DNA of 64,000 nt. It comes from a virus. Both the position numbers and the translations under genes were made by a program. Positions 25,692-45,834 of the stretch are shown here, piece by piece. The notes under the pieces were generated by a model. That model searched no databases. It had not been told where the DNA came from and was given only the letters and a program-made list of their open reading frames with translations. The stretch lies in the IMG/VR virus record IMGVR_UViG_3300037336_000053, positions 1 through 64,000 of that record. One strand, written 5' to 3'. Position 1 is the first letter of the stretch, and every line of letters starts with the position of its first letter.

Positions 25692-25970
25692 TTAATTGTA
25701 TTTCAAATACGGACACGCCAAAGTGAAATAAGAAATTTCTTTAGCTTCCTCAAATCCAACTTTAGTCATGTTCTCAATACTGTTGCTACTAGATACTGCA
25801 ACAGCCTTGCCTACATAAAATCTACCTTTAAGATGTTGTTCTATCCATTTAACTAGACTTTGGTCTAAGTTGTATCTTGTAGGCAAAAGAATGTATTCAA
25901 AATGCGGAGCAGGTAAATTTGCTCTCCGTATTTCAAAAAAGTTTAATGCATTGGCTTCTTTTAGTTTCAA
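25692..25970 (-). CDS. Hypothetical protein
   Basis: TTG start overlapping the upstream stop; fills the gap in the operon. Confidence 0.6.
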   Translation of the reverse strand: MKLKEANALNFFEIRRANLPAPHFEYILLPTRYNLDQSLVKWIEQHLKGRFYVGKAVAVSSSNSIENMTKVGFEEAKEISYFTLACPYLKYN

Positions 25971-27256
25971 GCCGTTTCCTCGTAATGTGCTGTTAGTCCA
26001 AACGGTGCCTGCAAGTTCTTATCACTATGACTATGGATAATAAAGATAGTATCGCAATACGATTCATCACCCCAGCTATTCCAAGGATATCCATCTGTAA
26101 ACATAATGAACTTCTTAGGTTGAATATCATTATATTTCATGTACTCCCAGTTAGCATCAAAATCAGTACCGCCGCCGCCAATAATTTCGTAGGATGACAA
26201 ATCATCGCCGCCGTCTGCACTAAAGTCTTGCTCGTTATAGACCTTAGTATCAAAGCACCACAATTTAATGTTGTAGTCTTTGTATTCGTCCATAATGCCT
26301 TTAATTTCGCTTAGGAAGTCCTTTGCTTGATCGTTACCGATTGAGCCACTCATATCAAGTGCAATACAAATATCAATAGTTTCATCAAAGTTCATTCCTG
26401 GCAAAATGGCACCAGTCATTTGTCCTTTACGGCTTGGCCGGCTAAAGGTGTAATCGTTGCGTATAGTACTTTGGATTTGTTGACGCAGTATTTCGCGCCA
26501 GTTCATCTTAGGCTCAGTAAGCTCTTTGATCATACGCTGTACTTCGCCTGGTGTATTACCTGCACCTGATGATTGAGCCGCCGAAATCATGTTTTCTTTG
26601 ATCTCGTCTTTGATCTTTTTCAGTTCTTCTTTAGAATATGTAGGACGGCTTTTGCTTTCTTTACCGTCGGCTCCGCTACCGCCAGGCTTGCCGTCTTTGC
26701 CGTCTTCACCTTCCCAGTCGATATGCTCGTCTAGTAGTTCGCCAAGTTGTTTAAGAAACTCTTCACCTTTATTCTTAGCGTCTTCAAAGATGTCGTCATA
26801 TACGTCTTCTGAAGACCATTTGTCGTATTTAAAGTCTTGGTAGCAGTCAATAAATGTTGGCTTAGTACCAATACGATCTCGCACAAGCAAATTATTTACA
26901 ATATAGTCTGCGGCAATATTATAAATTTTTGGAATACGGTCTTGTCTACGAGTTAAGTGGTCAAAGACGCAGTGTAGAATCTCGTGTGCAATAACAAACT
27001 CAATTTCTTTGTTTGACATTGCATTAAAGAATTGAGTATTAAAATACAAGTTACGTCCGTCTACGGCAGCAGTACCTAACCAATCATCTGCACTTTTGAT
27101 CTGCAAACGAGTTGCCATATTACCAAAAAATGGATGACGTAACAGCAATCCAACACGAGCTACAATGATACGATCAAGTACATCAACTCGCATCAATCTA
27201 AGTTGTTCTTCAGTAAGCTCTTTAGGTTGCCAATTTTTCTTGCCTGTGACGCTCAT
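25967..27256 (-). CDS. VWA-domain / DUF2201-type putative metallopeptidase
   Basis: AHEILH (HExxH), NIAADY, DMSGSI (MIDAS DxSxS), GGGTDF, FTDG. Confidence 0.85.
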   Translation of the reverse strand: MSVTGKKNWQPKELTEEQLRLMRVDVLDRIIVARVGLLLRHPFFGNMATRLQIKSADDWLGTAAVDGRNLYFNTQFFNAMSNKEIEFVIAHEILHCVFDHLTRRQDRIPKIYNIAADYIVNNLLVRDRIGTKPTFIDCYQDFKYDKWSSEDVYDDIFEDAKNKGEEFLKQLGELLDEHIDWEGEDGKDGKPGGSGADGKESKSRPTYSKEELKKIKDEIKENMISAAQSSGAGNTPGEVQRMIKELTEPKMNWREILRQQIQSTIRNDYTFSRPSRKGQMTGAILPGMNFDETIDICIALDMSGSIGNDQAKDFLSEIKGIMDEYKDYNIKLWCFDTKVYNEQDFSADGGDDLSSYEIIGGGGTDFDANWEYMKYNDIQPKKFIMFTDGYPWNSWGDESYCDTIFIIHSHSDKNLQAPFGLTAHYEETA

Positions 27257-27286
27257 TTTGCATTCCTTTTTAACTGTTATGTATGT

Positions 27287-27315
27287 ATTATATATTACTT
27301 TACAGGAAAAGTCAA
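27287..27315 (-). promoter_or_regulatory. Sigma70-type promoter
   Basis: TTGACT-17 nt-TATAAT on the minus strand. Confidence 0.7.
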
Positions 27316-27318
27316 GTG

Positions 27319-27346
27319 AAAATGGACGTTTTTATTGAGAACGCCC
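27319..27346 (-). terminator. Probable intrinsic terminator after the AAA ATPase gene
   Basis: GGGCGTT-loop-AACGTCC followed by ATTTT on the minus strand. Confidence 0.45.
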
Positions 27347-27360
27347 AAACTCTTTTATGG

Positions 27361-28446
27361 TTACGCTTGTTGAGCGGCAGTAATATACTTACCATAACGT
27401 GTATGAAACTCGTCAAAGCACTCAGTTTCATCTGGGTCAATAGGCAAAGCATACTGTGTAAGAGCAAGTTTAATACCCATAACAACTAGCTCAGTCTCAA
27501 AGTTATCCATTGCAAAGCGCAGGAAGTTATTTACTTTGGCATCAAACTTTTTATCGTTCTTGTCGCATGCTTCTTTAAGCTCATAGCACAAAGACACAGT
27601 TAAAGAGTACATAGCACTAATTTCTTTTGACTTCATCTCTTTAACTTTGCCCTCTAAAATATCAGTAGGATTAGGCATTGTTGCCGACACTCGACGATGT
27701 GCCATAAATTTTACAGCAAGACCTTCGCCTACTGCGCCACTAACTAAATCAGTAGTAGTGGTGTCATCGTCATCATCTTCAAGCAATTCACTAACAAACG
27801 TCCATGAACGAGGAGTAGCAAACGAACGACTTGGGCTCTTAGGATCAAAGTCGTACAAGTCTTTCTTTGCAAACGTCAAGTAACCTACAACATCGCGGTG
27901 TACTTTGTTATCAACTGCCCACTGGAACCAGTCATCAAATGATACTGCAAGTTCTAAGTGTACAAAGCGGTTAGCCAACGGAGCAGGCATACGGTACGTA
28001 ACGCCCTTATCAGCTTCACGGTTACCAGCGGCAATAATAAGAACATTATCTGGTAATGTATACTGTCCAACTTTGCGATTCAAAATCAACTGATATGCTG
28101 CCGCTTGTACACTAGGAGCCGCTGAGTTCATTTCGTCTAGGAAAAGAATAATGAATTTATATTTAGATGCCATTTCAGCATCTGGCAACTCGCTAGGAGC
28201 ACCCCAAACCATTTTGTGCTGATTTGGATCAAAGTACGGAATACCTTTGATGTCTGTAGGTTCCCAAAGGCTCAAACGAATATCAATAACTTTGGCTTCC
28301 ATTTGTTCACCAATCTGATGAACAATATCTGATTTACCAATACCTGGAGGACCCCAAAGGAACAACGGACGCTTTTTCTTAAAAGCACGTACAATGCTTT
28401 TCTTTGCGCTGTTAGGAGTAACGGTACGAAGTGTGGAGATTTCCAT
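27361..28446 (-). CDS. MoxR-like AAA+ ATPase
   Basis: GPPGIGKS (Walker A), LFLDEMN (Walker B), AAGNR, PLANRF. Confidence 0.9.
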   Translation of the reverse strand: MEISTLRTVTPNSAKKSIVRAFKKKRPLFLWGPPGIGKSDIVHQIGEQMEAKVIDIRLSLWEPTDIKGIPYFDPNQHKMVWGAPSELPDAEMASKYKFIILFLDEMNSAAPSVQAAAYQLILNRKVGQYTLPDNVLIIAAGNREADKGVTYRMPAPLANRFVHLELAVSFDDWFQWAVDNKVHRDVVGYLTFAKKDLYDFDPKSPSRSFATPRSWTFVSELLEDDDDDTTTTDLVSGAVGEGLAVKFMAHRRVSATMPNPTDILEGKVKEMKSKEISAMYSLTVSLCYELKEACDKNDKKFDAKVNNFLRFAMDNFETELVVMGIKLALTQYALPIDPDETECFDEFHTRYGKYITAAQQA

Positions 28447-31455: not shown

Positions 31456-32328
31456 TCAAGTCCCCCAGGCATTTCCGAATAAGCTAATGTGGAGTCTCGG
31501 AGTGAATCGGTATCCTTTTGCCATAGCAAGTTTTGCAACTTCTTGTACGGTAAGGTTATAACCTTCTGTACGACCGCCCATCGGCATAAGATATACTGGA
31601 ACATTGATCCCAATTTTTCTGTAAGCCTCGACAGCTCGATCAACTTCTTCAACGTCAACGCTGTCAGCAACAACAAATTTAAAATACATGTCAGCATTAA
31701 GTATAGAGCGGTAATTGGCAGCAACAGCAGGCTTAATAGCGTCTGTCCAAGATTCACCAGATACGGAGAGCTTGGGCGAACAACTAAACGTTGTTTTAAA
31801 TCTTGCCTGATTCTTAAGGTAATCGGCAAACTCCGTGTGTAAAAATTGTGTAGTGTTTGTTTCAAATGTAACATTCTTTAAGTCCTTCATTCTAGGATGC
31901 TCAAACAACTCAATATACAAACGCTGCCAAGCAAGTAGCGGTTCACCGCCAGTGAGAATCAAATGGACATCCTGTCCATTATCCATAGTCCACTTACCTT
32001 CTGGAGTAAGCGACAGTATATGTTCTACAACTTCGTCGATAGTCTTGTCCATTACAAGATGTTTGAACTCAGGATAGATACTTGCGTAAGTGTCGCAGCC
32101 AGTAAACACCAGCGGCAAGTCTTCAAATACTTTTGCAGTTAGATGCACACCGGAGTCAATAAGTTTTTTAACTTCTGGATTATATTTAGCTTTAGGAGTA
32201 CCACGAGGAAGTCCAAAGTTTTGACAACGGAAGTTGCAACCATATGTACGTAGGAATACACTAGGTACACCTACATATGCACCTTCGCCTTGTATACTGT
32301 AAAAGGCTTCGCTATATCTCAATTTCAT
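31456..32328 (-). CDS. queE: 7-carboxy-7-deazaguanine synthase QueE (radical SAM, split Cys motif)
   Basis: YSEAFYSIQGEG...VFLRTYGCNFRC...GCDT, LTGGEP, FETN, CSPK, PRLH; adjacent to folE. Confidence 0.85.
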   Translation of the reverse strand: MKLRYSEAFYSIQGEGAYVGVPSVFLRTYGCNFRCQNFGLPRGTPKAKYNPEVKKLIDSGVHLTAKVFEDLPLVFTGCDTYASIYPEFKHLVMDKTIDEVVEHILSLTPEGKWTMDNGQDVHLILTGGEPLLAWQRLYIELFEHPRMKDLKNVTFETNTTQFLHTEFADYLKNQARFKTTFSCSPKLSVSGESWTDAIKPAVAANYRSILNADMYFKFVVADSVDVEEVDRAVEAYRKIGINVPVYLMPMGGRTEGYNLTVQEVAKLAMAKGYRFTPRLHISLFGNAWGT

Positions 32329-33017
32329 CGTGCAAACTCCTGTTGCAGTTTAATATTGTCAAAGAATTCTTTCTTTGTACCAGCATCGTGTTTAAAGCTA
32401 CCTTCAAGTACAGTAGTTTGTGTAAGACTACTATTTGCCATGATGCCGCGATTCTCACAGCATCCGTGTGTTGCTTGAATATACACTCCTAAGTTACTAG
32501 TACCTGTAGCAGCTTTAATCTCACGTGCGATGTCATTACACAGTTCTTCTTGTAATGTACCACGTCTAGCACACCACTGTGCAATACGAGTATATTTGCT
32601 AAGACCAATTAACTTTTGAGAAGCAATAATGCCAATATAAGCAATGCCACTAACGGGCTGGTGATGATGACTGCACATGCTACGCAACTCACTGCGAACA
32701 ACCAACATGCCTTCATATCTATCCTTGCTGTCATTTGGGAACGCCGTTGCACTAGGCATAGGATCATAACGTCCGCTCATAATCTCATTGTAGTACATTT
32801 TAGCAAGGCGCTTTGCAGTACCTTTGCTGTTAGGATCATTTTCACGATCAATTAGCAGTGTGTCAAGTACACTTTCAAATGCTTGTGCAGCTTCGTTGAT
32901 AAGGATGTCTTTTGTATCATTGGAAATATATTCGCTGATGTTATCGCCTGCCCAAAAGCGTTTATTTTCCGAGTGCATCTTCTCACGAAGCACTTGAGAT
33001 AAGTTTTTTTCTGTCAT
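32325..33017 (-). CDS. folE: GTP cyclohydrolase I FolE
   Basis: RSMCSHHHQP, GLSKYTRI, LQEEL, HGCCENRG. Confidence 0.95.
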   Translation of the reverse strand: MTEKNLSQVLREKMHSENKRFWAGDNISEYISNDTKDILINEAAQAFESVLDTLLIDRENDPNSKGTAKRLAKMYYNEIMSGRYDPMPSATAFPNDSKDRYEGMLVVRSELRSMCSHHHQPVSGIAYIGIIASQKLIGLSKYTRIAQWCARRGTLQEELCNDIAREIKAATGTSNLGVYIQATHGCCENRGIMANSSLTQTTVLEGSFKHDAGTKKEFFDNIKLQQEFAR

Positions 33018-33060
33018 TTATTTCTCCGAGTTATTGACGTGGATGTCTTATATACTATTA

Positions 33061-33089
33061 AGTATACACTGTTATTTAGGCTTTGTCAA
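33061..33089 (-). promoter_or_regulatory. Sigma70 promoter with a late-type TAAATA nested in the spacer
   Basis: TTGACA-aagccTAAATAacagtg-TATACT (17-nt spacer). Confidence 0.7.
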
Positions 33090-33432
33090 GTAGTTTCTTA
33101 TAATTTCCTTTTTCAGGAATTACGTGCCTTACGCCACCTCGAGGATCCGCCATGTCCTCTTTGCGTCGTGGAATCAAATGTACATGAGCATATTCTACAG
33201 TTTGTCCTGCCGCTTCGCCTACATTCTGTCCTATGTTAAACGCTTCACAATATCCACGTTCTGTCCAATCGTATCCCCACTTGTATGCTGCTTCCCAGCA
33301 TTTTACAAGATGTTGCCAATCTTCTACTTTAGGAACAAAAAGAACGTGACCTTCTGTTACCGGAAAGTCGTCCTTATATACTGTAAAGTCTTTTGTATCT
33401 ACTAATACTTCAGTCCAAGGTTTAGTATTCAT
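33076..33432 (-). CDS. HIT family nucleotide hydrolase
   Basis: FPVTEGHVLFVPK, GEAAGQTV, HVHLIPR histidine triad. Confidence 0.9.
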   Translation of the reverse strand: MNTKPWTEVLVDTKDFTVYKDDFPVTEGHVLFVPKVEDWQHLVKCWEAAYKWGYDWTERGYCEAFNIGQNVGEAAGQTVEYAHVHLIPRRKEDMADPRGGVRHVIPEKGNYKKLLDKA

Positions 33433-33979
33433 TAACAGTTTCCCAAGGATAAACTAACCAAACGTCATCTTCTGCTTTGTTAATTTCGTGACAAGTATAA
33501 TCTACGGTGCCGTTAAACCCACTTGCTAGATTATCTGTAAGTGTAGCAAAGCGAACATTCTTATGCCAAACTGTATTCCAAGTTTCTTCATCGGGCAAAC
33601 AACTGCTCTGCCAATCTTCTTTGATCCAGTTAAATGTAGCACCGCTATCGTTGATATCATCTACAATAAGAATATTCTTACGTAGTGACAGGTCCCATCT
33701 TGCACCAGTAATGCCGGTTTCTTCAGCATTATTATATCCAAACGCTTCCTCGCTCATCCAAAGATTACTCTCAGGTCCGCATTCACTATCGCGCAAACTA
33801 ACTTTAAGTGCTTCGCAGCGAACTTTAAGCATGTTACTAATGATAGTAGCAGGAATATTGCCGCCACGAGTAATTCCTACAATATAATCAGGACGCCAGT
33901 TGTCTGCATACATGCTAGTAACAATCTGTACGCACATCTTTTCAATGTCTTGCCAACTGTAATAATGTTTCTTAATCAT
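33422..33979 (-). CDS. Type I phosphoribosyltransferase (Gpt/Hpt-like)
   Basis: IVGITRGG, ILIVDDINDSGAT (PRPP-binding loop), WLVYPWE. Confidence 0.9.
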   Translation of the reverse strand: MIKKHYYSWQDIEKMCVQIVTSMYADNWRPDYIVGITRGGNIPATIISNMLKVRCEALKVSLRDSECGPESNLWMSEEAFGYNNAEETGITGARWDLSLRKNILIVDDINDSGATFNWIKEDWQSSCLPDEETWNTVWHKNVRFATLTDNLASGFNGTVDYTCHEINKAEDDVWLVYPWETVNEY

Positions 33980-34275
33980 TTCATGCTCTCCAGTGTTGCA
34001 ATTTTAGCAATCTTATCACCAAAATCATCGTCCTTGTGAATAATGTAAGTAGTTGTATTAGTACGATCTTTTACCCGATCATATGTTCGAAACTCTACCA
34101 CACGTCCGCCTATTGCACTAAACACTCTAAAGTTTAGTATAGGGTCAGCATCGCACACAGTTGCTTCAGTATCACGCGAACATGTTACCGTGACACGACC
34201 AACTGTGCATTTTTCTTCTTCATAATCGCTACCTTGCCTTGCCCAGCTAGCTACTAGTTTTTTAAACCATCTCAT
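33976..34275 (-). CDS. Hypothetical protein
   Basis: ORF coupled by an ATGA overlap. Confidence 0.65.
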   Translation of the reverse strand: MRWFKKLVASWARQGSDYEEEKCTVGRVTVTCSRDTEATVCDADPILNFRVFSAIGGRVVEFRTYDRVKDRTNTTTYIIHKDDDFGDKIAKIATLESMK

Positions 34276-34655
34276 TTAGATTCCTTAATTGCATCAAATG
34301 TTTTATACTTTGCAAGTTGCGACTCATACGCATCTTTTAGTTCTTTTAGCTTAGGATACTTTGCTTCCATATCTACGTGTTGCTTTAATAATAACACAGA
34401 GTCACGCAGTTCGTCAAGTTCTTTCATAACATCTCTGCCTTGAACAACAAGAGGAATATCAATCTGCACCGTATTAGGATCTAACGAGTCTCTTATAGTC
34501 AGATTACCAGTAATAGCACTAGCACTACTATACGTTCCGGTTAACACACCAGTATTAGTACAACTAATATACCCGCTCAGAGCAGACATTTTTTGTGCTG
34601 CTGATCCGGACAAGAGTCCAATGGTGTTAGAACTGGAATTAGTGTTCGAGCTCAT
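34272..34655 (-). CDS. Hypothetical protein
   Basis: S/T-rich N-terminus and coiled-coil C-terminus (YPKLKELKDAY). Confidence 0.6.
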   Translation of the reverse strand: MSSNTNSSSNTIGLLSGSAAQKMSALSGYISCTNTGVLTGTYSSASAITGNLTIRDSLDPNTVQIDIPLVVQGRDVMKELDELRDSVLLLKQHVDMEAKYPKLKELKDAYESQLAKYKTFDAIKESK

Positions 34656-35103
34656 ATTTTTCCTTCAAGTATTGTTCATGTTGTACCCAAGCACCGTCTT
34701 TGACAAAGCCCCATTCTCTTAGTTTAGGACCAGGTACAAACAAAGTCCAAGGCTCAATACCAGGCTCAAGTTCAATGCTATGAAGAGACTTAGGACTGCT
34801 AAACCTAAAATGCCCCGGTCGTCTCCACAATTTACCTGCTGGAGTATGTTCCCAATACCCGCCGCTAAGAATAAAAGTAAAGTAAGGCCAAGGATGATCA
34901 TGTAAGTCATCTAAATCTCCTTTATGAAAGTTATGTAAAAAGACATTAAACGGAAACCATGTACGCTCTTTTAAGAAAAGATAATAGCGTGTTAAGTACG
35001 GCTCGTTGTGGTAACGGTCCATAATCACACGCTTGCGATCTACACGTTCTAGCAGTTTAAGAAAGATTGTGCCAATAGATATATTATCCTTTAATTGTGT
35101 CAT
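34639..35103 (-). CDS. Cupin-fold protein
   Basis: HNFHKGDLDDLHDHPW..ILSGGYWE..HSIEL..WTLF cupin metal motifs. Confidence 0.75.
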   Translation of the reverse strand: MTQLKDNISIGTIFLKLLERVDRKRVIMDRYHNEPYLTRYYLFLKERTWFPFNVFLHNFHKGDLDDLHDHPWPYFTFILSGGYWEHTPAGKLWRRPGHFRFSSPKSLHSIELEPGIEPWTLFVPGPKLREWGFVKDGAWVQHEQYLKEKYELEH

Positions 35104-36181
35104 ACAATGCTGCTCCACTAAAAAATTCTTTGTTTAGTTTAGTAACTTGTTTAGCTAGACTAACTGCAAAGTCATCGTAATTTTCCATGTACTCTACAAT
35201 ACGTGCAATTACTTTGTCTTTGTGATACAAGTAAGCGTCATAGTCTTCAGTCCATTCGCTTGGGTATAAGAATTCTGGAACAGCCATTTCACTGTAGCTT
35301 AGTCTATTCGGCACCATAGGAATAGCATTTACTAATGCACCTTCATACCAACTAATACCTAGTGTTTCTTGTAGGTTAGCACTAAACACAAGTTTAGCTT
35401 CCCCTAGCAAGTTATGATATTCATTCTTTGTAAGCTGTTGCTCTTGACAAACAACAAACTCATATTGTGGCAGGAGCTGTGCCAAGTCTCTAAAAATATC
35501 AACTTGCTTCTCAGGAGCAACACGATGTGGAAACAAGATCAAGTCTCGCTTCTCCATACCTTTATATTGTGTTAAGCTATCTTTAAGATACTCCATAGGC
35601 CATCCTACACGAACAATTTTACCACCGTCGTAGATTTCTTCCCAGTCATCGTCGTACCAAGGATTCTCTACCATCATGCCGCCGTGCAGTAATTCATCAA
35701 AGAACATCCGAACATGGAACTCTGTAGCAAAGAAGTTATTGTCGTACACATGATACATACTCTTCTCAGCATGTCTTACCCAGGGCTTATTGCCAATTAG
35801 CCTACCAAGAAAATCATGAGGATCATAACTACCAGCATGCCATAAGCCACCGATTCTGATATCAACGCCCAAGAGCTCAGCCATGTAACGAAGCTGGATA
35901 ACAGTTGGGTTCCAAGCATCCGTATATAGAAAATAGTCTCCATTCTTTACCTCACCTTTGCAAAACATTTCACCAATGATTTCTAATTGCTTACTCTTAT
36001 AAACATTAGTACCACCAAAATTAAGAAACGCCCCAGGCGTAGTTGCCTGAGGAGTATTTCCGCCGCTAATAACTTTAACATCTTCATTAGTAGCATGCCG
36101 CATTTGCTTAGGCAAATACTCTTTCCACTGTTTAGTGTAGCGGGTATCTACTGCTTCAATGTCTACTATGAAGATTGTCAT
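35084..36181 (-). CDS. GT-B fold glycosyltransferase
   Basis: WHAGSYDP, FPHRVAPEKQ, NLQETLGISWYEG (E-x7-E donor-binding motif). Confidence 0.75.
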   Translation of the reverse strand: MTIFIVDIEAVDTRYTKQWKEYLPKQMRHATNEDVKVISGGNTPQATTPGAFLNFGGTNVYKSKQLEIIGEMFCKGEVKNGDYFLYTDAWNPTVIQLRYMAELLGVDIRIGGLWHAGSYDPHDFLGRLIGNKPWVRHAEKSMYHVYDNNFFATEFHVRMFFDELLHGGMMVENPWYDDDWEEIYDGGKIVRVGWPMEYLKDSLTQYKGMEKRDLILFPHRVAPEKQVDIFRDLAQLLPQYEFVVCQEQQLTKNEYHNLLGEAKLVFSANLQETLGISWYEGALVNAIPMVPNRLSYSEMAVPEFLYPSEWTEDYDAYLYHKDKVIARIVEYMENYDDFAVSLAKQVTKLNKEFFSGAALYDTIKG

Positions 36182-36427
36182 TTAGTTACCTCGATTGCTT
36201 TCAAACCTTGGGTTAGGACGGCGTGTGCGACGATTGGGATCGTAGCTTGCGCCTGCACGAGATTTTGCTCGCAGCCAACCTTGGTGTTTGTTGTACGCAA
36301 TCCAAGTTGGTGACTCGTTGCTATACATGTCTTTTTCATCAAAGACTTTTGCTTCAAAGCGACAGTAGTCACGGAATTTATCCAAGTCGTCAAATACCTT
36401 GCGGATAATAGGATTCTCAATTGACAT
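36182..36427 (-). CDS. Small basic hypothetical protein
   Basis: Start at ATG 36427 after the dpdL-like stop; FDDLDKFRDYCRFE. Confidence 0.65.
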   Translation of the reverse strand: MSIENPIIRKVFDDLDKFRDYCRFEAKVFDEKDMYSNESPTWIAYNKHQGWLRAKSRAGASYDPNRRTRRPNPRFESNRGN

Positions 36428-36440
36428 AGTTTTTACCTTT

Positions 36441-36920
36441 TTAATTCTTAGGATAAAAGTTTGAACAGCCGTTTTCGCCATCTTCGGCAACATCAATCTC
36501 TACAAATCGGCCGGGATACTTTGTAGAAATTTCTCTGTACAAGTCATCTGCGATCATTTCGCAGCTCTTGTGATTTAGTTGTAGTACAGATGTAGAGCTA
36601 TCTACTTCAGCATACAACCGTTCCATCCAACGTTTAAATTGGATAAACTCAATATCGCGATCGTTATGGAACACTTCGATGCGAACTTTAAAATGGAAAA
36701 TATGGCGATGCGGAACGCCAAGGAATGATACATCATCCCATCCGCCTGTTGCTAGTTTAGGATTAGTGTCTGCACCAGGGTACATATGTACCCCCTCTTT
36801 AGAGAACGTGACCCAGATACTACGATCTGCTTTATTCATTGCGTTTTCTGTTGCCATTTTTGCGTCTTCTTCCTTCATTCTGCGTCCCATATAATTATGA
36901 TACGATTCGTGTTGTGTCAT
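36441..36920 (-). CDS. dpdL: QueD-like T-fold protein, probable CDG decarboxylase DpdL
   Basis: LGVPHRHIF matches the LxxxHRHxF signature I recall for DpdL; DRDIEFI, SCEMIA, EDGENG; sits in the folE/queE/TGT cluster. Confidence 0.65.
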   Translation of the reverse strand: MTQHESYHNYMGRRMKEEDAKMATENAMNKADRSIWVTFSKEGVHMYPGADTNPKLATGGWDDVSFLGVPHRHIFHFKVRIEVFHNDRDIEFIQFKRWMERLYAEVDSSTSVLQLNHKSCEMIADDLYREISTKYPGRFVEIDVAEDGENGCSNFYPKN

Positions 36921-36926
36921 AGTATT

Positions 36927-36955
36927 ATTATACTTTCTTTAGTTAGTGTTGTCAA
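36927..36955 (-). promoter_or_regulatory. Perfect consensus sigma70 promoter (likely leaderless dpdL mRNA)
   Basis: TTGACA-17 nt-TATAAT; the ATG lies 6 nt downstream of the -10. Confidence 0.75.
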
Positions 36956-37616
36956 GTGTTTTTTTTGAACAGTTGTCAAAATGCCATCTTTTCATAGGAC
37001 TATTGCCACCTGTTTTACCACAGTGCGGGCAAGTTACAGTATCTTGTGCAATACCTTTTAGAGCATCTGAACGTTTTTGATTAGATACAGGATCTTGTGT
37101 TTTACCCTGCTTTGCTTTAGAAATCTTTAGTTTAGTTGCTTCACTATGATGCTTACCTTCCATACCAGATTTTACAGAACCATATCGTTCAATCTTTGTC
37201 TGAATAATCTTTCGTTTAGTTTCTTCGCTTAACACTTTACCTGTATGTGCTTCAGATAGACGCTGTCTGTGTTCTTTTGATTTCGTTTTGCCTTTATGCG
37301 AAGGAGGACGACAGTCTGTGAGTATATTCATAAGTATTCCAGACTCGTCAATACGCCTACCATACTTTGCAATAAGTGTTTCTTCTAAAGTGTAAGCAGA
37401 TTCTTCGTCCATATCTTTCTGTATGATTTCAATAGCAGGTATTAAACCGTTGTCAAGTATACTTTTGATTTTCATATCCTTCATATGATTATCTGTAGAA
37501 CGACCATTCTTTACAGCACGGAGATGATCCAAATGCCTTTTGTTGTCCCACTTACCTTTACCTATATAAAACGGTTCCATTGTTTCTGGGTCTTTATAGC
37601 AATAAACATAATACAT
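36939..37616 (-). mobile_element. Free-standing GIY-YIG-type homing endonuclease with NUMOD3 repeats
   Basis: YYVYCY..PFYIGKG..R..H, E..LI..YGR, NUMOD3 (SEETKRKI, HSEATKLKISKAK), C-terminal CPHCGK..HFDNC; TAAATA upstream. Confidence 0.8.
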
Positions 37617-37661
37617 ATGTTTATTTAGCAAAACTTACCCTTATTATTCTAAAACTGACTC

Positions 37662-37904
37662 TTATAATCCTAAACCTGCAAGGAATGCTCGTAGCTTCTT
37701 ACCTGTATCGTGTTCGTCGCCTTCACGATAACCATCTTCCATATAACGAAGAAACTCTTGATGCGTCATACCTGTGTCCTGCACTTTCTTGCCGTCGTAT
37801 TCTTTGCGGAATGTAACCCAAATACTTTTAGTAGGTTCTGTCATAGTTCTTTCTTCTCTTATTTTGCGTAGTATGTAGTTGTGATAGTTTTCTTGCTCAT
37901 ACAT
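37662..37904 (-). pseudogene. Truncated duplicate of the dpdL-like 5' end fused to unrelated sequence
   Basis: YHNYILRKIREE..KSIWVTFRKE versus YHNYMGRRMKEE..RSIWVTFSKE in 36441-36920; the similarity stops right after TFxKE. Confidence 0.65.
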
Positions 37905-37906
37905 TA

Positions 37907-37935
37907 ATTATACGCTCACTTTAACACTTTGTCAA
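37907..37935 (-). promoter_or_regulatory. Perfect consensus sigma70 promoter
   Basis: TTGACA-17 nt-TATAAT. Confidence 0.75.
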
Positions 37936-38437
37936 GGCCATATTCGCGCCAGTCAGTAAATTTATCACGGTCCATCAAATTATGCAGGTTATGGCACCAA
38001 ACGCCCGGATTAGTTGCACGAAACCCTTTGTCGTCAATCTTGACCATTGTGTTGTAGTTCCATTGTTTAACGTAAGGAACAACTACACGAAGCTGCGGAA
38101 TAAAATAATTGTTCTCAATCAGCCCGCCGTCCATAAACCATTCTAAGTTAATAGTGCTCGGAATATCTAGACTACAAAAGATACCTTCATCTAAAAACAG
38201 TTGAATTAATTTATCCCATGCTTCAAAGTCTTCCGCCGCAACAGGATTGTAACTGTGATTAGCACCAAAAAAGATATGCTCGCATTGTTCTTCTTTGTAG
38301 TACTTCATAACTTCATTGTAGTCTTGAATACCAGTAACAAACAATGTCTTCATTCCAAATGCAGGAGTCTTTTCAACTTCTACACCTGTAAAGAATGTAA
38401 TACTGTCTGCTGTGCCTGTGTCGTAATCACGTTTCAT
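37916..38437 (-). CDS. Hypothetical protein in the deazaguanine cluster
   Basis: FFTGVEVEKTPAFGMKTLFV, HIFFGANHSY, KIDDKGF.ATNPGVWCH. Confidence 0.75.
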   Translation of the reverse strand: MKRDYDTGTADSITFFTGVEVEKTPAFGMKTLFVTGIQDYNEVMKYYKEEQCEHIFFGANHSYNPVAAEDFEAWDKLIQLFLDEGIFCSLDIPSTINLEWFMDGGLIENNYFIPQLRVVVPYVKQWNYNTMVKIDDKGFRATNPGVWCHNLHNLMDRDKFTDWREYGLDKVLK

Positions 38438-38438
38438 A

Positions 38439-39029
38439 TTACGCTCTGAACTCAAAAAGTCGGTTGCTTGTATTAGTTGAAAGTTTTTTTATATGTTTCA
38501 TTGCTCCTTCGGTAATACGATATTGGTATTGTCCACTGGTTTGCCTCTCAAAATAGCCCAAATGATTGTTGTAACGAATGTATTTAGGCATATTCTTTGG
38601 ATTGCTAGATTTAAGCATAGATTGTCCGTACTCCCATGCTTCTTTAAGTTTAGATTGTATTTCGTTACATGTAAAATCATAAACTTTTGCTTCAGTAACT
38701 ACGTTGTCACCAGTAAGTATATTTTCATCATATTCAACACGGTATTGCCGTTGAATCTTATTTCTAATATTACTATATTCCCAAGAAGTATTTATAATAT
38801 CTACAGGTAGCATAGCACCTACTGTATGACCGCTTGTGCTACTTCTCAAACGGCTTTTAATTTCTAGTCCATACTTGGGAAGATCTATACCTTTTCCTCG
38901 ATTAACTTTGTAACCTTTATCTTCAAGATCGTTTTCAATCCATCTTCCAATATTACCATTATACTGTTTCATTGGAATAACTGTTCCGGGTTTTATTGCA
39001 CTATTAAGTGATATTACTTTTATCATCAT
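38439..39029 (-). CDS. PD-(D/E)XK nuclease, MutH/Sau3AI-like
   Basis: GNIGRWIE..GIDLPKYGLEIKSR resembles the G.iG..iE..pD..gvElK core of MutH/Sau3AI-type endonucleases. Confidence 0.5.
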   Translation of the reverse strand: MMIKVISLNSAIKPGTVIPMKQYNGNIGRWIENDLEDKGYKVNRGKGIDLPKYGLEIKSRLRSSTSGHTVGAMLPVDIINTSWEYSNIRNKIQRQYRVEYDENILTGDNVVTEAKVYDFTCNEIQSKLKEAWEYGQSMLKSSNPKNMPKYIRYNNHLGYFERQTSGQYQYRITEGAMKHIKKLSTNTSNRLFEFRA

Positions 39030-39235
39030 TCTAAACCTTTTTGTATCAAATATGCATTAATACAATGCATCTCATCTTTAAGCCAAAGTTTCATAGTTTT
39101 CATTCTACGAATTTCGTCTTGTTTTGTAACATCAGTATAACTTGCTTCTATTTCGTTGTCAAGTTCTCTATGCCTAATTTTTAGTTCTTCGTAATGCTGC
39201 TTGAGTCTATCTTCGTCATTTTCATAATTGTCCAT
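39026..39235 (-). CDS. DUF465-like small coiled-coil protein
   Basis: LKIRHRELDNEI..RRMKTMKLWLKDE. Confidence 0.65.
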   Translation of the reverse strand: MDNYENDEDRLKQHYEELKIRHRELDNEIEASYTDVTKQDEIRRMKTMKLWLKDEMHCINAYLIQKGLE

Positions 39236-40781
39236 TTTCCAAGTCCTCTAACAAGTGTGTTTGATCTTCAGTAAAACAACCATCTTCTAGTTCTTCTACT
39301 TCTGGTTCAACAACATCAAACAATGCTCCAAAGTAAGTACTAGAGTTTACAGTCTTTTTACCAATGGCTCCGCGAGTGCCCGGAATTGACATCCAAAACT
39401 TAGAGTTATTGTCAATTAAGGCGTTTGCTTCTTCTCTTGTAGTTGCTGCAAATATTGTTTCAACAACGTCTCTAAAAAAGACCCTGTCAAATTGCTCTTG
39501 TACAAGCATTCTCGGTACAACTCCAGCATCGTATTGTCTATTGGCTTCTTGAACTGCATTGATGTGACTCCAAACATTATGACCCATTTGAATGGCATAT
39601 GAAAAACTATCCCAAGATGTTCTTCCTTCTTTGCCAATCTTATTTAAGTCGCCCGGCTTGTAAATGCATACATCACTGACTTTCATTTCTGCTGTAATAG
39701 GACTATCTTCAAAGTTTTTAAAGATGCCATCTTGCAATACTGCTTGTTTAAAAGTTCTAGTATCGATTGAATACTTCTTATCATCAATGCTAGGCACCAT
39801 TCGGTAAGTCCACTTACCTCTATCAGGAGTTTCATTTTGAACGTAGATCTGTCCATTAGCTGTTGCTAAGAACGGACTTGCACAGTCAAATGTAAGCATC
39901 ATAGTGGGGTTATAGTACTTGCGTATAGCCCGCTGTACGTCCGTAAGCAAACATGCCCACTCTAGCTTGCTTGTGCCTAGAAAGTGCATTACATCGTGTA
40001 TACCGCTTTGTAACAAGCCATCAAAGTGCATAGAAACAATGCGTTTAAGAACCAAGTGTACGTCACACATGTTTTGACCGCCCATCGACCACCCATTAAA
40101 GTGATTGTCCGGATACTTGGCTGGATCGCAATAGTCTTTCATTTGCTCGTACCAGTCATCTGCATCTGCATGATTCTCACCTTGTAGTACGTTTAAGAAC
40201 TTACAAGCACCAGTGCGGTGTTTCATCCAGTAGTCGTTATTAATACGTGTTGCTTTAACTGCTTCGTTGTATGTGCTAATGCCAGTAGCTTTTGCACCTT
40301 CAGGGCTACGAGCAACCCAAGCCGGGATATCAAGTACCATGCCATAGTCCATGTAAGCGTCCATCCAACGCAATACACCGTCTCGTTTCTTTTGAGCTTT
40401 AGGACAATTAGGATCTTTCCAATCACCTTCCCAAACACCCTTACCAATCTGGAATCCACCTGAATCGCCCAGCAACCAAGTGTTTTCACGGTCCCTATTA
40501 CGTACCATATCTTCTTTAGCTACAAACTTAGTCGTATCTAAATCAGCATGTCCTGCAGAGTAAAGCGTCCACTTGTATGTGAACGCTCCTTCTTGTGCGT
40601 TTAGATAGTTAAGACTTTCTATACCGTTAGCAAAATTAGCAGGGATACGGTCATCAGGAACATACGGACCTTTAACAGGATCAGGATGACGTTGTTTGCC
40701 TACATAAGTCGCATAGAAGCCACTAAGTGCAGGTAAGAAATGTGCGTAATCGTTTTGTGTCGCAGTTAAGTCTTTATTCAT
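39222..40781 (-). CDS. dpdA: tRNA-guanine transglycosylase-fold protein, probable DNA/deazaguanine transglycosylase (DpdA family)
   Basis: LGDSGGFQ, MVLDIP, NVLQG, GWSMGG, HFLGT, TFDCAS: TGT barrel motifs; lacks the tRNA-TGT Zn site; next to folE/queE. Start at ATG 40781. Confidence 0.7.
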   Translation of the reverse strand: MNKDLTATQNDYAHFLPALSGFYATYVGKQRHPDPVKGPYVPDDRIPANFANGIESLNYLNAQEGAFTYKWTLYSAGHADLDTTKFVAKEDMVRNRDRENTWLLGDSGGFQIGKGVWEGDWKDPNCPKAQKKRDGVLRWMDAYMDYGMVLDIPAWVARSPEGAKATGISTYNEAVKATRINNDYWMKHRTGACKFLNVLQGENHADADDWYEQMKDYCDPAKYPDNHFNGWSMGGQNMCDVHLVLKRIVSMHFDGLLQSGIHDVMHFLGTSKLEWACLLTDVQRAIRKYYNPTMMLTFDCASPFLATANGQIYVQNETPDRGKWTYRMVPSIDDKKYSIDTRTFKQAVLQDGIFKNFEDSPITAEMKVSDVCIYKPGDLNKIGKEGRTSWDSFSYAIQMGHNVWSHINAVQEANRQYDAGVVPRMLVQEQFDRVFFRDVVETIFAATTREEANALIDNNSKFWMSIPGTRGAIGKKTVNSSTYFGALFDVVEPEVEELEDGCFTEDQTHLLEDLENGQL

Positions 40782-40783
40782 TT

Positions 40784-41125
40784 TTAAACAATGTTCCTTA
40801 TTATTACTATGGAACTTATAGCAATCCATAGGGTATTGAATGCAACTAGCGTTGGCAATAGTTTTCTTTCGCTAGCCCAAATCAACATTACTGATGTTAG
40901 TAGTGTTACAAAATGTAACTGCCATATCTCTAAATTGAACACTAGACTCGGAATAATCACTAATGTTTTTGCTAACCAGGATACTGCTTCAACAATATTG
41001 TAACTTGACCAGTATCCTGGTTTAAACCAGTAACTGTAACATTCTTTAATATTTTTCCAACCTACACGGTGATAAGTTGTAAGCGTTATAGCTAAAAATG
41101 TTACAATTATTAAAAGTTCTAGCAT
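40784..41125 (-). CDS. Small membrane protein
   Basis: About four hydrophobic segments. Confidence 0.65.
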   Translation of the reverse strand: MLELLIIVTFLAITLTTYHRVGWKNIKECYSYWFKPGYWSSYNIVEAVSWLAKTLVIIPSLVFNLEIWQLHFVTLLTSVMLIWASERKLLPTLVAFNTLWIAISSIVIIRNIV

Positions 41126-41868
41126 TATTTGCTCTGCGCTGGAAGGATGTAGTTGTATTTTGCCATACCTGAATCAACACTAATCATCATAGCACCCTGA
41201 TCACTAATGCTCATAGTAGTAGTACCGCTTAGATTTAAAATACTTTGAACAGCGGCAACTGGCCAACTCCAAGTGTGCGACAGTTTACCTTTTATTGCAT
41301 TTTGAAATACAAACTCACCTGCGTGTGTGCTTGCATCGCCAAAGCTAAACACCAAGTCAGTTGCACTGCCTGTTGCAGTAGTCTTAACATTAAATGTAGG
41401 TTCCTCACTATGAGCAGCACTCTGTAACTTCATACGTCCAATTGCTGCTACGCTAGGCTGAAATTCAACTTGCCATGTTGCACCTTTAAATGTAACCGTC
41501 TTAAGTTTTTCGTCAATGATTGCTCGGTTCATAAAGCGATAATCATTTTCAAAGTCACCAGTTGAGTTTTCAAAGTGAATATGTGTAGGAATAGTTTCGC
41601 CATTGCGTACTGCTTTGACTACTTCAATCTTTGCATCTTTTTGATACTCGGGATTTTTTAAGTGTAGTGCAAGTTTGTCCAAATTGGGCATACCAAATAT
41701 ACCATCAAATTCTGTTACTGGTGTATGTGCCGTTGCAGTCATAATAACTGAACGATCATCTGCCATACTTTCAACGACTGTGCTAGTAGTATCAGCAGTT
41801 ACTTTAACTAATGATAAAGACCCTAGTGCGTGTGTATGTGCTACTACGTCTTGTAAAATATCTTTCAT
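41125..41868 (-). CDS. Probable sliding clamp (gp45-like)
   Basis: 247 aa, FGMPNLDKL, C-terminal ISVDSG..YNYILPA; lies near polB. Confidence 0.6.
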   Translation of the reverse strand: MKDILQDVVAHTHALGSLSLVKVTADTTSTVVESMADDRSVIMTATAHTPVTEFDGIFGMPNLDKLALHLKNPEYQKDAKIEVVKAVRNGETIPTHIHFENSTGDFENDYRFMNRAIIDEKLKTVTFKGATWQVEFQPSVAAIGRMKLQSAAHSEEPTFNVKTTATGSATDLVFSFGDASTHAGEFVFQNAIKGKLSHTWSWPVAAVQSILNLSGTTTMSISDQGAMMISVDSGMAKYNYILPAQSK

Positions 41869-42626
41869 GCGATTTCTCCTGTGTTAAGTTTTATTATAGT
41901 GCCTAATTCTTTGTTTGTCAAGAACTCTTTTATCATATATTTAGGTTTATATCCTAAGGCTTTCATTTTTTCTAAATTTGCACATGTAAATGTTCTTTCA
42001 TGTAGAGTATTTAGGCGGATAGGCAAGCCAGGAGCCAAGTCCTGAACTCTAATTGGATCACCTGAACCAATATCTATTATACCATTAACGTGCGTCTTTT
42101 TAATCAGTATTTCAATTGCATCGCAAATATCGTTAATGTGTACAAAATCTCTGTGGTGTTGAGTTACGTATTCTAATGTACCATTAAATAGTTTATCAAA
42201 GAACATGTTCTTTCTAGGTAAGTCGGAATACACAGTGTGGAATCGCATACCTAAAGTATCAGTATACCGTGTTGCTAATTTTTCCAGTATGTACTTAGAT
42301 GCCGCATAAGGGTTCAAATCGGGCTCGTACGCACTGCTTGAGCTTGCATACAATATGCGAGCGTTACTATAGCGTTCAAACAGTCTACGGCTTGCTTCTA
42401 CATTGTTTAACCAATAAGCACCCGGGTCATTTAGGCTTTCACGAACACCGCTTTTTCCTGCTAGATGTATTACAAGATCGACATGATTCGGAAAGTCACA
42501 AGTAAGCAAGTTGGTACCTGCTTGCAAGTCTATACAGTGTATAACTTCTACATCATTGTTATTTGTTAATCGTGCAAGTAATGCAGTACCTATAAAGCCC
42601 CTGTGACCCGTTAGCAAAATTTTCAT
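41865..42626 (-). CDS. NAD-dependent nucleotide-sugar epimerase/dehydratase
   Basis: TGHRGFIG (GxxGxxG), HLAG, YASSSS, YAASK (YxxxK). Confidence 0.9.
   Translation of the reverse strand: MKILLTGHRGFIGTALLARLTNNNDVEVIHCIDLQAGTNLLTCDFPNHVDLVIHLAGKSGVRESLNDPGAYWLNNVEASRRLFERYSNARILYASSSSAYEPDLNPYAASKYILEKLATRYTDTLGMRFHTVYSDLPRKNMFFDKLFNGTLEYVTQHHRDFVHINDICDAIEILIKKTHVNGIIDIGSGDPIRVQDLAPGLPIRLNTLHERTFTCANLEKMKALGYKPKYMIKEFLTNKELGTIIKLNTGEIA
41893..41921 (-). promoter_or_regulatory. Perfect consensus sigma70 promoter
   Basis: TTGACA-17 nt-TATAAT inside the 3' end of the epimerase gene, facing the clamp gene. Confidence 0.75.
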
Positions 42627-43336
42627 TTCGCTGCTACCTTTGCTTCTTGAAAATATTGTAACAGTTCAAATGTTTCTTGCCAGCGTTTTACAGGCTTTGC
42701 TACGTCTACTTCTAACGACAGCGGATAATCATTACCAGCAGGATCCATTCTATCACCAAAGAAGTAAAGTTTATCTTCAACTTCAAAGTCCTCAACAATT
42801 TGTGCTTTGTCCGCACCTAGTGGAGCAATATCAATACCAGTTTCGCCTCCTACCGTTGCTTGTAGTGTAGGAAATAATCCATTAAACTCTTGAGCAATAA
42901 TATTACGTTCGTCGAATAGAACATCATATATAACGTAATCTGCTCGTTGTTCTTTGTCAGCGCTACGTCCAACTATGCTAAAGTTAACAAGCCCAGGGCG
43001 ATGTTCGAAGTGTAATCCTGTACGAGTACAATAGGTACTTTCGGTTAGCTTATTAGATAACCATTCGTGTGCATCTTCGGGAAGTGTCCAATCATTAGTA
43101 TGAATATTCACACCTTTCTCCCAAACATCATTGCCGTTACAGTTATAAATCCTCATCACAGCATCACAAACATCAGGACCAACCTGTTCTAATGTTTTAG
43201 CATAGTCGCTACCTGTAACTAGATAAACTTCGTTTGCATAACAAAAGTCTATAAAGTATCCTTGAAACTCACTATTCATACCACTGCGACTTGGCGTTAA
43301 TGTTCCGTCAACATCAAATATAAACTTATTACCCAC
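42623..43336 (-). CDS. HAD-IIB phosphomannomutase (eukaryote-type PMM)
   Basis: FDVDGTLT, VTGSD, FSIVGR, GGETGIDI, FFGD. Confidence 0.8.
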   Translation of the reverse strand: MGNKFIFDVDGTLTPSRSGMNSEFQGYFIDFCYANEVYLVTGSDYAKTLEQVGPDVCDAVMRIYNCNGNDVWEKGVNIHTNDWTLPEDAHEWLSNKLTESTYCTRTGLHFEHRPGLVNFSIVGRSADKEQRADYVIYDVLFDERNIIAQEFNGLFPTLQATVGGETGIDIAPLGADKAQIVEDFEVEDKLYFFGDRMDPAGNDYPLSLEVDVAKPVKRWQETFELLQYFQEAKVAAK

Positions 43337-43739
43337 GATCAGCTACTCTCTTTCTTAAATCACTTGAACTAAAACGATGATCTCGTTTATTAAAGTATAA
43401 TTTAATATCTCTTTTACGGCAAATGTCTTTACCAGTAAAATCCTTATCTCTATACTCCTCTCCTAATATTCTAACATGAATATGATACATTGTCAAGATA
43501 TCTTCTAGGTCTTGTTCGGTGCCATAAGGAATAATTTCATTTACATATCCTACTGCTTTAAGTTGCGTATAGCGCTCGACAATAGTCTGTATAGGGGAAT
43601 TTTTATCTAGACGATCAACGCTAGGATCCACTTGTAATCCGCAGATCAAATAATCGCACTGTTCTTTTGCTTCACGTAACATTTGTACATGCCCGGCGTG
43701 AAGTAAATCAAAAGTTGATGCGGTGAAACCTACCTTCAT
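43329..43739 (-). CDS. Glycerol-3-phosphate cytidylyltransferase (TagD)-like
   Basis: TFDLLHAGH (HxGH), RDHRFSSSDLR. Confidence 0.85.
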   Translation of the reverse strand: MKVGFTASTFDLLHAGHVQMLREAKEQCDYLICGLQVDPSVDRLDKNSPIQTIVERYTQLKAVGYVNEIIPYGTEQDLEDILTMYHIHVRILGEEYRDKDFTGKDICRKRDIKLYFNKRDHRFSSSDLRKRVADRG

Positions 43740-45769: not shown

Positions 45770-45834
45770 GACTATGGTGATACTCCTATCGTTGTATGCT
45801 TGCTATACTTATTTAACATCATAGTCAAAAAACC

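Follow-up and report, generated by a model that had tools for sequence, protein, structure and literature searches.

Background and gene content of the locus

In the DNA of phage phiST all of the guanine (G) is replaced by 2'-deoxy-7-deazaguanine (dDG); the proteins DpdL and DpdA3 have been predicted in this phage (PMC10516641). Vibrio phage VP1, whose genome is not public, is also fully dDG-substituted. The dpdL and dpdA genes of Acidovorax phage ACP17 gave no dDG in E. coli, for which the authors suggested that enzymes were missing; a glycosyltransferase is not mentioned in the main text of their paper (PMC10516641). The DNA of phage PA5oct resists cleavage at five restriction sites that contain G, and modified-G sensors target it; it is known only as G-modified, and only QueE and a 6-pyruvoyl-tetrahydropterin synthase (PTPS) were noted (PMC12191111). 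Here we consider a related locus in a stretch of viral DNA of 64,000 nucleotides (IMG/VR record IMGVR_UViG_3300037336_000053, positions 1 to 64,000; hereafter the window). It belongs to a large marine phage that carries an active-looking glycosyltransferase (GT) in a 7-deazaguanine gene set, a pairing found in at least eight phage lineages. In common with the phiST-type system (Cui et al. 2023, PMC10516641), the locus has FolE, QueD and QueE, a DpdL with the motif LxxxHRHxF, no QueC, a transglycosylase of the tRNA-guanine transglycosylase (TGT) superfamily and a location in the replication gene block. The transglycosylase differs in length, being 519 amino acids (aa) in the window, about 420-450 aa in the ACP17 type and 259 aa in phiST, and the window protein, g535, has no detectable sequence similarity to phiST DpdA3. 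Moreover, the long DpdA always occurs with a GT-B glycosyltransferase, whereas phiST, MA9V-3 and D479 are without a GT.

To our knowledge, the sugar-decorated bases known from DNA, namely glucosylated 5-hydroxymethylcytosine (hmC), base J, arabinosyl-hmC and glycosylated 5-hydroxycytosine, are all pyrimidines. Phage T4 glucosylates hmC with alpha- and beta-glucosyltransferases of the GT-B fold, and, as in the window, the phage encodes the GT-B enzyme alongside the genes for a non-canonical base, presumably for restriction evasion. In T4, however, the acceptor is a hydroxyl on a hydroxymethyl-pyrimidine that is produced before replication, whereas that in the window would be a hydroxyl-free 7-deazapurine installed, as we propose, by base exchange. 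Vertebrate tRNA contains mannosyl- and galactosyl-queuosine, in which a sugar is likewise attached to a 7-deazaguanine derivative already within nucleic acid, but there it sits on the cyclopentenediol hydroxyl, in eukaryotic RNA and not in DNA; queuosine itself cannot be made by the window phage, which has no QueC, QueF or QueA. The huimycin and dapiramicin pathways (PMC7439116) also encode a glycosyltransferase together with the 7-deazaguanine precursor genes FolE, QueD and QueE, and N2 glycosylation is proposed for them, HuiG being the enzyme proposed to glycosylate the free 7-deazapurine in huimycin biosynthesis. A 2026 preprint reports PF13439 glycosyltransferases (the GT4 N-terminal domain) in the huimycin biosynthetic gene cluster family, and it is by this and by gene context that HuiG is likened to the window GT. 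These pathways differ in making an actinomycete secondary metabolite on a 7-cyano-7-deazaguanine (preQ0) scaffold with QueC, in having no DpdA and in a product that is not in DNA. The bacterial DpdA/DpdB/DpdC system (PMC10164549) has in common a TGT-like DpdA that inserts deazaguanine and needs a partner; that partner is the ATPase DpdB rather than a GT-B protein, the base is preQ0 or 7-amido-7-deazaguanine, and replacement is sparse, as against probably extensive in the window.

We suggest that the GT is a functioning component of the long-DpdA module and that it attaches a sugar to deazaguanine, a statement to which we would give somewhat less than an even chance, and we are similarly just short of evenly balanced on whether the window module constitutes a distinct subclass of 7-deazaguanine DNA modification in an abundant lineage of large metagenomic phages. 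That phages with both a long DpdA and a GT-B enzyme replace guanine by a glycosylated 7-deazaguanine is a more tentative proposal. Such a base in DNA is plausible as a prediction from the genes, and literature searches, within the papers accessible to them, found no described example, in line with what an earlier reading of the sequence alone (the sequence-only reading) had stated. If true, this would be, as far as is known, the first purine reported to carry a sugar in natural DNA, and a new chemical class of DNA hypermodification, probably made by a new enzyme reaction on a hydroxyl-free acceptor. The sugar step could account for the failure of ACP17 dpdL and dpdA to yield dDG in E. coli. 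It is also relevant to how restriction, CRISPR and glycosylase-based defences act against therapeutic phages of the PA5oct type. Among the carriers are the PA5oct group, which is of interest for therapy, and a group of large phages that is very abundant in metagenomes. Since members of the GT family abound in metagenomes, the modification would be widespread, and since several cultured phages carry the module, the question is directly testable.

The genes on which the argument turns belong to a single minus-strand array of closely packed genes at 31456-43739.

39222-40829, minus strand: g535, long DpdA-like candidate transglycosylase of the TGT superfamily (likely start 40781, giving 519 aa)
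37916-38455, minus strand: g179, conserved protein of no family, with a homologue beside DpdA in ACP17
36441-36920, minus strand: dpdL, QueD-like T-fold paralogue, proposed 7-carboxy-7-deazaguanine (CDG) decarboxylase (motif, homology)
36182-36496, minus strand: g104, small basic protein, isoelectric point (pI) 10.2 (likely start an internal ATG near 36427; abuts the GT start)
35084-36181, minus strand: GT, predicted GT-B, GT4-like retaining-type glycosyltransferase, 365 aa (model, profile, motifs)
34639-35118, minus strand: cupin-like protein of a cysteine-dioxygenase-like phage family (phrog_4786, E 1.8e-35)
34272-34655, minus strand: g127, low-complexity N terminus, no family match
33976-34275, minus strand: g99, no family match
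33422-33979, minus strand: phosphoribosyltransferase (PRTase), type I purine, Gpt/XGPRT-like (PF00156, E 6.4e-10)
33076-33432, minus strand: HIT-family nucleotide hydrolase/transferase (PF01230, E 1.9e-10)
32325-33017, minus strand: FolE, GTP cyclohydrolase I (PF01227, E 2.4e-37)
31456-32328, minus strand: QueE, radical-SAM CDG synthase (phrog_2076, E 1.6e-53; PF04055 weak)

In the sense of transcription the run reads dpdL, g104, GT, cupin-like, g127, g99, PRTase, HIT, folE, queE, and neighbours between dpdL and folE overlap by 4-35 nucleotides or abut. The sequence-only reading had placed the HIT, PRTase, cupin-like and GT genes, co-oriented, between dpdL and folE; all four open reading frames (ORFs) are found there on the minus strand, although its four-gene run left out g104, g127 and g99. 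QueD is encoded at 95425-95808 of the 123-kb contig, and no QueC was found on this contig or in four complete GT-bearing genomes.

Linkage of the glycosyltransferase to the dpd genes

Conservation was assessed gene by gene in 80 related IMG/VR loci with GT identities of 77-100%, all 80 of which have the GT; 67 contain both GT and g535, 54 cover the stretch from GT to folE and 49 that from the polymerase to g535. In all 67 of the loci that span GT and g535, these two occur together with g179 (67/67) and dpdL (67/67), accompanied by a DUF465 protein in 65 and by g104 in 64; g196, a small basic protein, is present in only 10 of the 67. Between GT and folE the PRTase is constant (54/54), with HIT in 35, the cupin-like gene in 32, g127 in 15 and g99 in 8 of the 54 loci; at its shortest the run is GT-PRTase-FolE. 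Further upstream a nucleotidyltransferase (46/49), a PMM/HAD protein (43/49) and an epimerase (38/49) are common.

In eight lineages the GT stands beside dpdL and/or DpdA, with the gene order rearranged among them. The order is g535-type DpdA, GT, dpdL, then PRTase and queE in the PA5oct group; g179-like, DpdA, GT, dpdL, queE in ACP17; GT-DpdA-dpdL-queE in Xanthomonas phages BUDD and X1; DpdA-dpdL-GT in Synechococcus phage BUCT-ZZ01, where an annotated XGPRT adjoins queE; and polB-dpdL-GT-x-DpdA-like in a metagenomic clade whose GT is 28% identical. Burkholderia phage BCSR5 has a family member beside dpdL and/or the long DpdA. Sinorhizobium phage Phosso (dpdL-GT-x-folE) keeps the GT together with dpdL and folE, at a distance of 170 kb from the DpdA-like gene. 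Linkage to dpd clusters in other genomes, the lack of which the sequence-only reading had named as grounds for giving up its proposal, was thus found in Phosso, the PA5oct group, ACP17, BUDD/X1, BCSR5, BUCT-ZZ01 and the metagenomic clade. As side observations, in the metagenomic clade just named a further GT paralogue lies directly beside folE (L097:1572-2636, L098:4736-5953), and PAC2 of the PA5oct group encodes, between dpdL and PRTase, a 170-aa protein (L002:10806-11318) that matches the N-terminal half of the Pfam NAD-epimerase family (E 1.8e-7) and may be another cluster-specific enzyme in PA5oct.

Among 12 cultured lineages of dpdL phages, whole-genome profile searches found GT and long DpdA both present in six and both absent in six. 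The probability of such a split by chance is 1/924, which is optimistic given that the modules share descent. Positive controls were detected with each profile. The phages in which neither was found are phiST, MA9V-3, D479, Bakedbeans, Ahp1 and RHph_I1_18; for MA9V-3 and phiST, the absence of the long DpdA refers to their gene neighbourhoods, which show the short type only, the DpdA profile searches having covered the others. In phiST, MA9V-3 and D479 a short phiST-type DpdA3 takes the place of the long DpdA. The identities of GT and of DpdL to the window proteins fall in the same lineage order. No thymidylate-synthase-like gene (PF00303) was found in GT-bearing ACP17 or BUCT-ZZ01, and the GT is therefore not tied to hydroxymethyl-pyrimidines.

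Fold and conserved residues of the glycosyltransferase

No match to the GT was obtained in Pfam (including Glycos_transf_1 and Glyco_transf_4), PHROG or NCBIfam, and a single-sequence search of the PDB gave only noise. An AlphaFold2 (AF2) model from a 60-sequence alignment reached a mean predicted local distance difference test score (pLDDT) of 93.9 and a predicted TM-score of 0.92, and shows the GT-B architecture of two Rossmann-like domains with an inter-domain cleft. Its nearest structures are retaining GT4, GT5 and GT20 enzymes, with VIA Z scores of 22-26 over about 300 aligned residues (sucrose-phosphate synthase 26.2, BshA 25.2, MshA 24.6) and a Foldseek E value of 2e-10 to glycogen synthase and BshA; T4 AGT and BGT are not among the top structural matches listed. 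The family profile aligns the C-terminal domain with the PDB GT4 chains 8xsg and 2f9f. The GT-B enzyme that the sequence-only reading had assigned to 35084-36181 is borne out by these matches, and the 365-aa protein is, on the model, a confident GT-B, GT4-like retaining glycosyltransferase.

Over 60 diverse homologues (27-52% identity) residue E280 is invariant and E272 nearly so, and R220 and K225 are kept in at least 90%. These form R-x4-K and E-x7-E patterns, which we take to be the donor-site (diphosphate-binding) signatures of GT4 enzymes, as mapped onto MshA and PimA. Given the fold and these conserved donor-site residues, the GT looks like an active nucleoside diphosphate (NDP)-sugar transferase. 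In the N-terminal domain many acidic and aromatic residues are conserved and few basic ones, which, with the BshA- and MshA-like neighbours of the model, would fit a small acceptor. The pI was rejected as a guide to a DNA versus a small-molecule acceptor, since the DpdA-like proteins are acidic as well. A complex prediction for GT and g535 scored 0.00, which is evidence neither way.

The GT falls in a separate, divergent family that comprises 1158 clusters at 50% identity and more than 8000 at 90%, TARA samples included, and that occurs on 425 IMG/VR contigs; the contigs of four distant representatives are too short to show gene context. Two relatives lie in other surroundings. At L089:845-6333 a 36%-identical GT occurs with a canonical GT4, a PurT-like ATP-grasp protein, a NUDIX hydrolase and a PRTase; the 7 kb available show no dpdL, and this cluster may represent a different nucleotide- or base-decorating pathway. 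In Xanthomonas phage PhiXhv-12 (L109:5669-8903) a distant relative stands with GlmS and a BshB-like deacetylase, in what looks like an amino-sugar small-molecule pathway.

The long DpdA-like transglycosylase and DpdL

The evidence on g535 comes from motifs and family profiles. Its homologues, down to 27% identity, have G105-D106-S-G-G-F-Q111, D299, S302 and P303 invariant, and the motifs DSGGFQ (D106), LQG, HxLGxSK and FDCxSP (D299), kept in all relatives, align with the E. coli Tgt motifs DSGGFQ, IIQG, LMGVGKP and MFDCVMP. By hhalign, the g535 family matches the family of ACP17 ASD50403 (probability 85.8, E about 5e-6), which in turn matches E. coli Tgt (92.9, E 3.6e-7); the direct comparison of the g535 family with Tgt is weak (5.5), and those of g535 with phiST DpdA3 or with the single ACP17 protein are not significant. 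The ASD50403 family includes a protein named by JGI 'tRNA-guanine family transglycosylase' and a BUDD gene annotated 'queuine tRNA-ribosyltransferase', and one of its 35 members matches the Pfam TGT family at E 0.006; its profile found no TGT chain in the PDB with HMMER. An ESM Atlas lead for g535 points to a viral cluster in which 22% of the members carry PF01702. No Pfam or other family match to g535 and no PDB sequence match to its profile were obtained, and a PF01702 scan at E up to 10 returned nothing in the window genome, ACP17, PAC2, Phosso or phiST. The published DpdA3 also needed HHpred to be recognised (PMC10516641). The AF2 model of g535, from a shallow alignment, has a poor pLDDT of 50.7, with an alternation of strands and helices over residues 120-300 that is compatible with a TIM barrel. 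We regard g535 as a candidate DNA guanine transglycosylase of the TGT superfamily, and since a TGT-like DpdA with invariant motifs is encoded in the same cluster, we favour a route by post-replicative base exchange. For g179, which resembles ACP17 ASD50402 (phmmer E 1.5e-10), searches of Pfam, PHROG, NCBIfam and the PDB gave no match.

The DpdL motif, LGVPHRHIF, fits the LxxxHRHxF that replaces the CxxxHGH of QueD (PMC10516641). DpdL matches that of phiST (CGPG_00067) with phmmer E 6e-13 and tblastn E 1e-7, tblastn gave matches in 28 phage records, and there is no Pfam match. Its CDG decarboxylase activity is a prediction (PMC10516641). DpdL corresponds to the C-terminal part of longer proteins in Vibrio phage Bakedbeans (gp176, 383 aa, L105:8260-9411) and in MA9V-3 (293 aa, L108:8491-9372), which suggests a fusion to another domain.

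Phosphoribosyltransferase, cupin, HIT and nucleotide-sugar genes

The PRTase scores 39 bits against PF00156 (cut-off 26.3) and has the acidic loop ILIVDDINDSGAT that binds phosphoribosyl pyrophosphate; its best NCBIfam match is NF006613, xanthine PRTase (E 2.8e-10, far below the equivalog cut-off). It is in the cluster in four lineages, namely the window clade, PA5oct, BUCT-ZZ01 and L089, the last being Pfam-annotated and matching the PA5oct PRTase at E 4e-4. No PF00156 gene is present in the complete ACP17, Phosso and BUDD genomes, all of which keep the GT, so that the GT is independent of the PRTase, a core gene of the window clade that is accessory when the lineages are compared. In the biosynthesis of toyocamycin and tubercidin, deazapurine nucleotides are built by PRTases, and the sequence-only reading had proposed a pre-replicative route of this kind. 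The purine type of the enzyme and its recurrence in four lineages agree with that route, which is weakened by the conserved TGT-like DpdA and by PRTase-free ACP17, Phosso and BUDD. As each exchange by DpdA would free one guanine and GTP is the starting compound of the pathway, salvage to GMP offers a simple role for the PRTase, and we consider it as plausible as nucleotide activation.

The cupin-like protein shows G-x5-HxH and a later His in its sequence, and its ESM-Atlas link to CDO_I scores only 0.79-0.83, with no Pfam or NCBIfam match. The family phrog_4786 ('cysteine dioxygenase') is spread over 98 phage records, mostly of Mycobacterium, Gordonia, Burkholderia, Caulobacter and Xylella phages. 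Comparison of the other GT-bearing loci revealed no homologue. The gene is optional in the clade, being missing from 22 of 54 close relatives, and for this reason we do not count it as the pathway hydroxylase that the sequence-only reading had made of it; it probably stands outside the pathway. The HIT protein scores 41.6 bits against PF01230 (cut-off 21.5), and its motif AHVHLIPR keeps the second and third His, the nucleophile among them, with Tyr or Ala in place of the first. Its proposed membership of the pathway does not hold up either, with presence in 35 of 54 relatives and no detection in the other GT-bearing loci. Both genes occur in 30 of the 54 loci, the cupin-like gene alone in 2, HIT alone in 5 and neither in 17; they are gained or lost together, perhaps as two sub-clades or as a functional pair.

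At the upstream end of the array are three genes (41865-43739), matched in Pfam, PHROG and NCBIfam under curated cut-offs, that best resemble the ADP-heptose branch (RfaE domain II, HAD-IIB, HldD).

43329-43739, minus strand: RfaE-domain-II-like nucleotidyltransferase
42623-43336, minus strand: PMM/HAD-IIB protein
41865-42626, minus strand: HldD/GalE-like short NAD epimerase

They could supply the donor for the GT in the window clade. The other GT-bearing phages are mostly without such genes and would therefore need NDP-sugars of the host.

Proposed pathway and competing explanations

What is observed is the identity of the genes, the fold and motifs of the GT, the TGT motifs and the co-occurrence; the acceptor and donor, the sequence of the steps and the part played by the PRTase are inferred. 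In the pathway that we propose, FolE, QueD (from elsewhere on the contig) and QueE would produce CDG, which DpdL would decarboxylate to 7-deazaguanine, and the long DpdA (39222-40781) would swap guanine in DNA for the new base. As an integral partner of the long DpdA, the GT would transfer a sugar from an NDP-sugar to the deazaguanine, either as the free base or once in DNA, the donor in the window clade coming perhaps from the upstream three-gene module. Virion DNA would then contain a sugar-bearing 7-deazaguanine rather than plain dDG. The Gpt-like PRTase would most likely salvage the guanine released by DpdA to GMP and GTP, thereby feeding FolE, and the cupin-like and HIT genes would be optional cargo. 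Because 7-deazaguanine has no obvious hydroxyl acceptor, the linkage would be of the N-, C- or ester type; N2, C7/C8 and the CDG carboxylate are candidate sites.

Several observations speak against a glycosylated base. The only dpdL phages measured, phiST and VP1, carry plain dDG, and no published chemistry for any GT-bearing phage was found in the accessible literature. The base has no obvious hydroxyl for a sugar, and the Asp that binds N1/N2 in TGT is kept in both types of long DpdA, a feature that tells against insertion of an N2-glycosylated base. The solved GTs of nearest structure act on small metabolites and not DNA, the GT itself is acidic (pI 5.05), and the co-occurrence counts ignore the shared ancestry of the modules. 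The main rival in our ranking, which we consider unlikely while still giving it real weight, is that these phages contain plain dDG as in phiST, the GT acting on another acceptor (protein, envelope or metabolite) and travelling with dpd in a conserved replication block. Besides the measured phages it can point to GT4 enzymes being usually found in envelope or metabolite pathways, to BshA, MshA and sucrose-phosphate synthase as nearest structures, and to the relatives in PhiXhv-12, with GlmS and a BshB-like deacetylase and no dpd genes in the 17 kb examined, and at L089, with its second GT4, ATP-grasp, PRTase and NUDIX genes. It is harder to reconcile with the perfect match between the presence and absence of GT and long DpdA across 12 dpdL lineages, with an adjacency to dpdL or DpdA that is kept despite differing gene order, or with Phosso, in which the GT has stayed with dpdL and folE and not with the distant DpdA-like gene.

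The close tracking of GT and transglycosylase type, rather than of FolE or DpdL only, also makes it improbable that the GT yields a soluble product that never enters DNA, be it a pterin glycoside (from FolE and a PTPS-like DpdL) or a deazapurine glycoside of the huimycin kind. DpdL is a PTPS/QueD paralogue with predicted activity only, huimycin is a free-base deazapurine glycoside and the GT N-terminal domain conserves acidic and aromatic but few basic residues, all of which would suit such a product; tetrahydrobiopterin glucosyltransferase (BGluT) is among the structural matches, but at Z 21.3 it lies well under the top ones, and no exporter or regulator genes were seen. We find it very improbable that the scheme of the sequence-only reading applies as a whole, in which the PRTase makes a nucleotide for replication, HIT edits the pool, the cupin hydroxylates and the GT acts on that hydroxyl as in T4. 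The four genes do lie in one packed run, with a purine-type PRTase found in the cluster of four lineages, a precedent in toyocamycin and tubercidin and a cupin-HIT pair in 30 of 54 relatives. The TGT-like DpdA, however, argues for post-replicative exchange, the cupin is absent from 22 and HIT from 19 of the 54 GT-keeping relatives, neither is detected in other GT-bearing loci, the cupin family is scattered across unrelated phages, and ACP17, Phosso and BUDD are without the PRTase. That interpretation is partly supported, holding for the GT only. Strict co-occurrence with the long DpdA, and the failure of DpdA with DpdL alone in E. coli, would be expected too if the GT-B protein were a structural or accessory subunit, loosely like DpdB for bacterial DpdA. 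To this we attach the least credence, since the (nearly) invariant R-x4-K and E-x7-E over 60 homologues of 27-52% identity would be unexpected in a pseudo-enzyme.

Other features of the region

The remaining genes of the array are as follows.

41125-41868, minus strand: sliding clamp (homologues annotated as clamps in Phosso and PA5oct)
40784-41125, minus strand: small hydrophobic ORF
39026-39235, minus strand: DUF465 protein
38439-39029, minus strand: g196, basic, 196 aa, no family match found
37662-37904, minus strand: g80, resembles the start of DpdL
36939-37631, minus strand: GIY-YIG/NUMOD3 homing endonuclease

A megablast search of the region against phage records found no near-identical DNA, and g104, g127 and g99 had no match in Pfam, PHROG or NCBIfam. 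Sigma-70-like sites, by match to the consensus only, were seen just upstream of dpdL (12/12) and between HIT and folE (11/12). The homing endonuclease (36939-37631) lies just upstream of dpdL and is present in only 2 of 67 relatives. Beyond it, g80 is a repeat of approximately the N-terminal 40 residues of DpdL (phmmer E 1e-6), and g80 and dpdL each have a perfect sigma-70-like site; in relatives without the endonuclease, g80 and dpdL map to one gene. At 25967-28446, a MoxR-type AAA ATPase adjoins a DUF2201 metallopeptidase/VWA protein, the two forming a conserved phage pair. The family B DNA polymerase (43845-48006) is divided into two ORFs, with a 314-aa ORF between them and intein-splicing-domain matches at the break, and PA5oct has a comparable split of its DNA polymerase, with a homing endonuclease.

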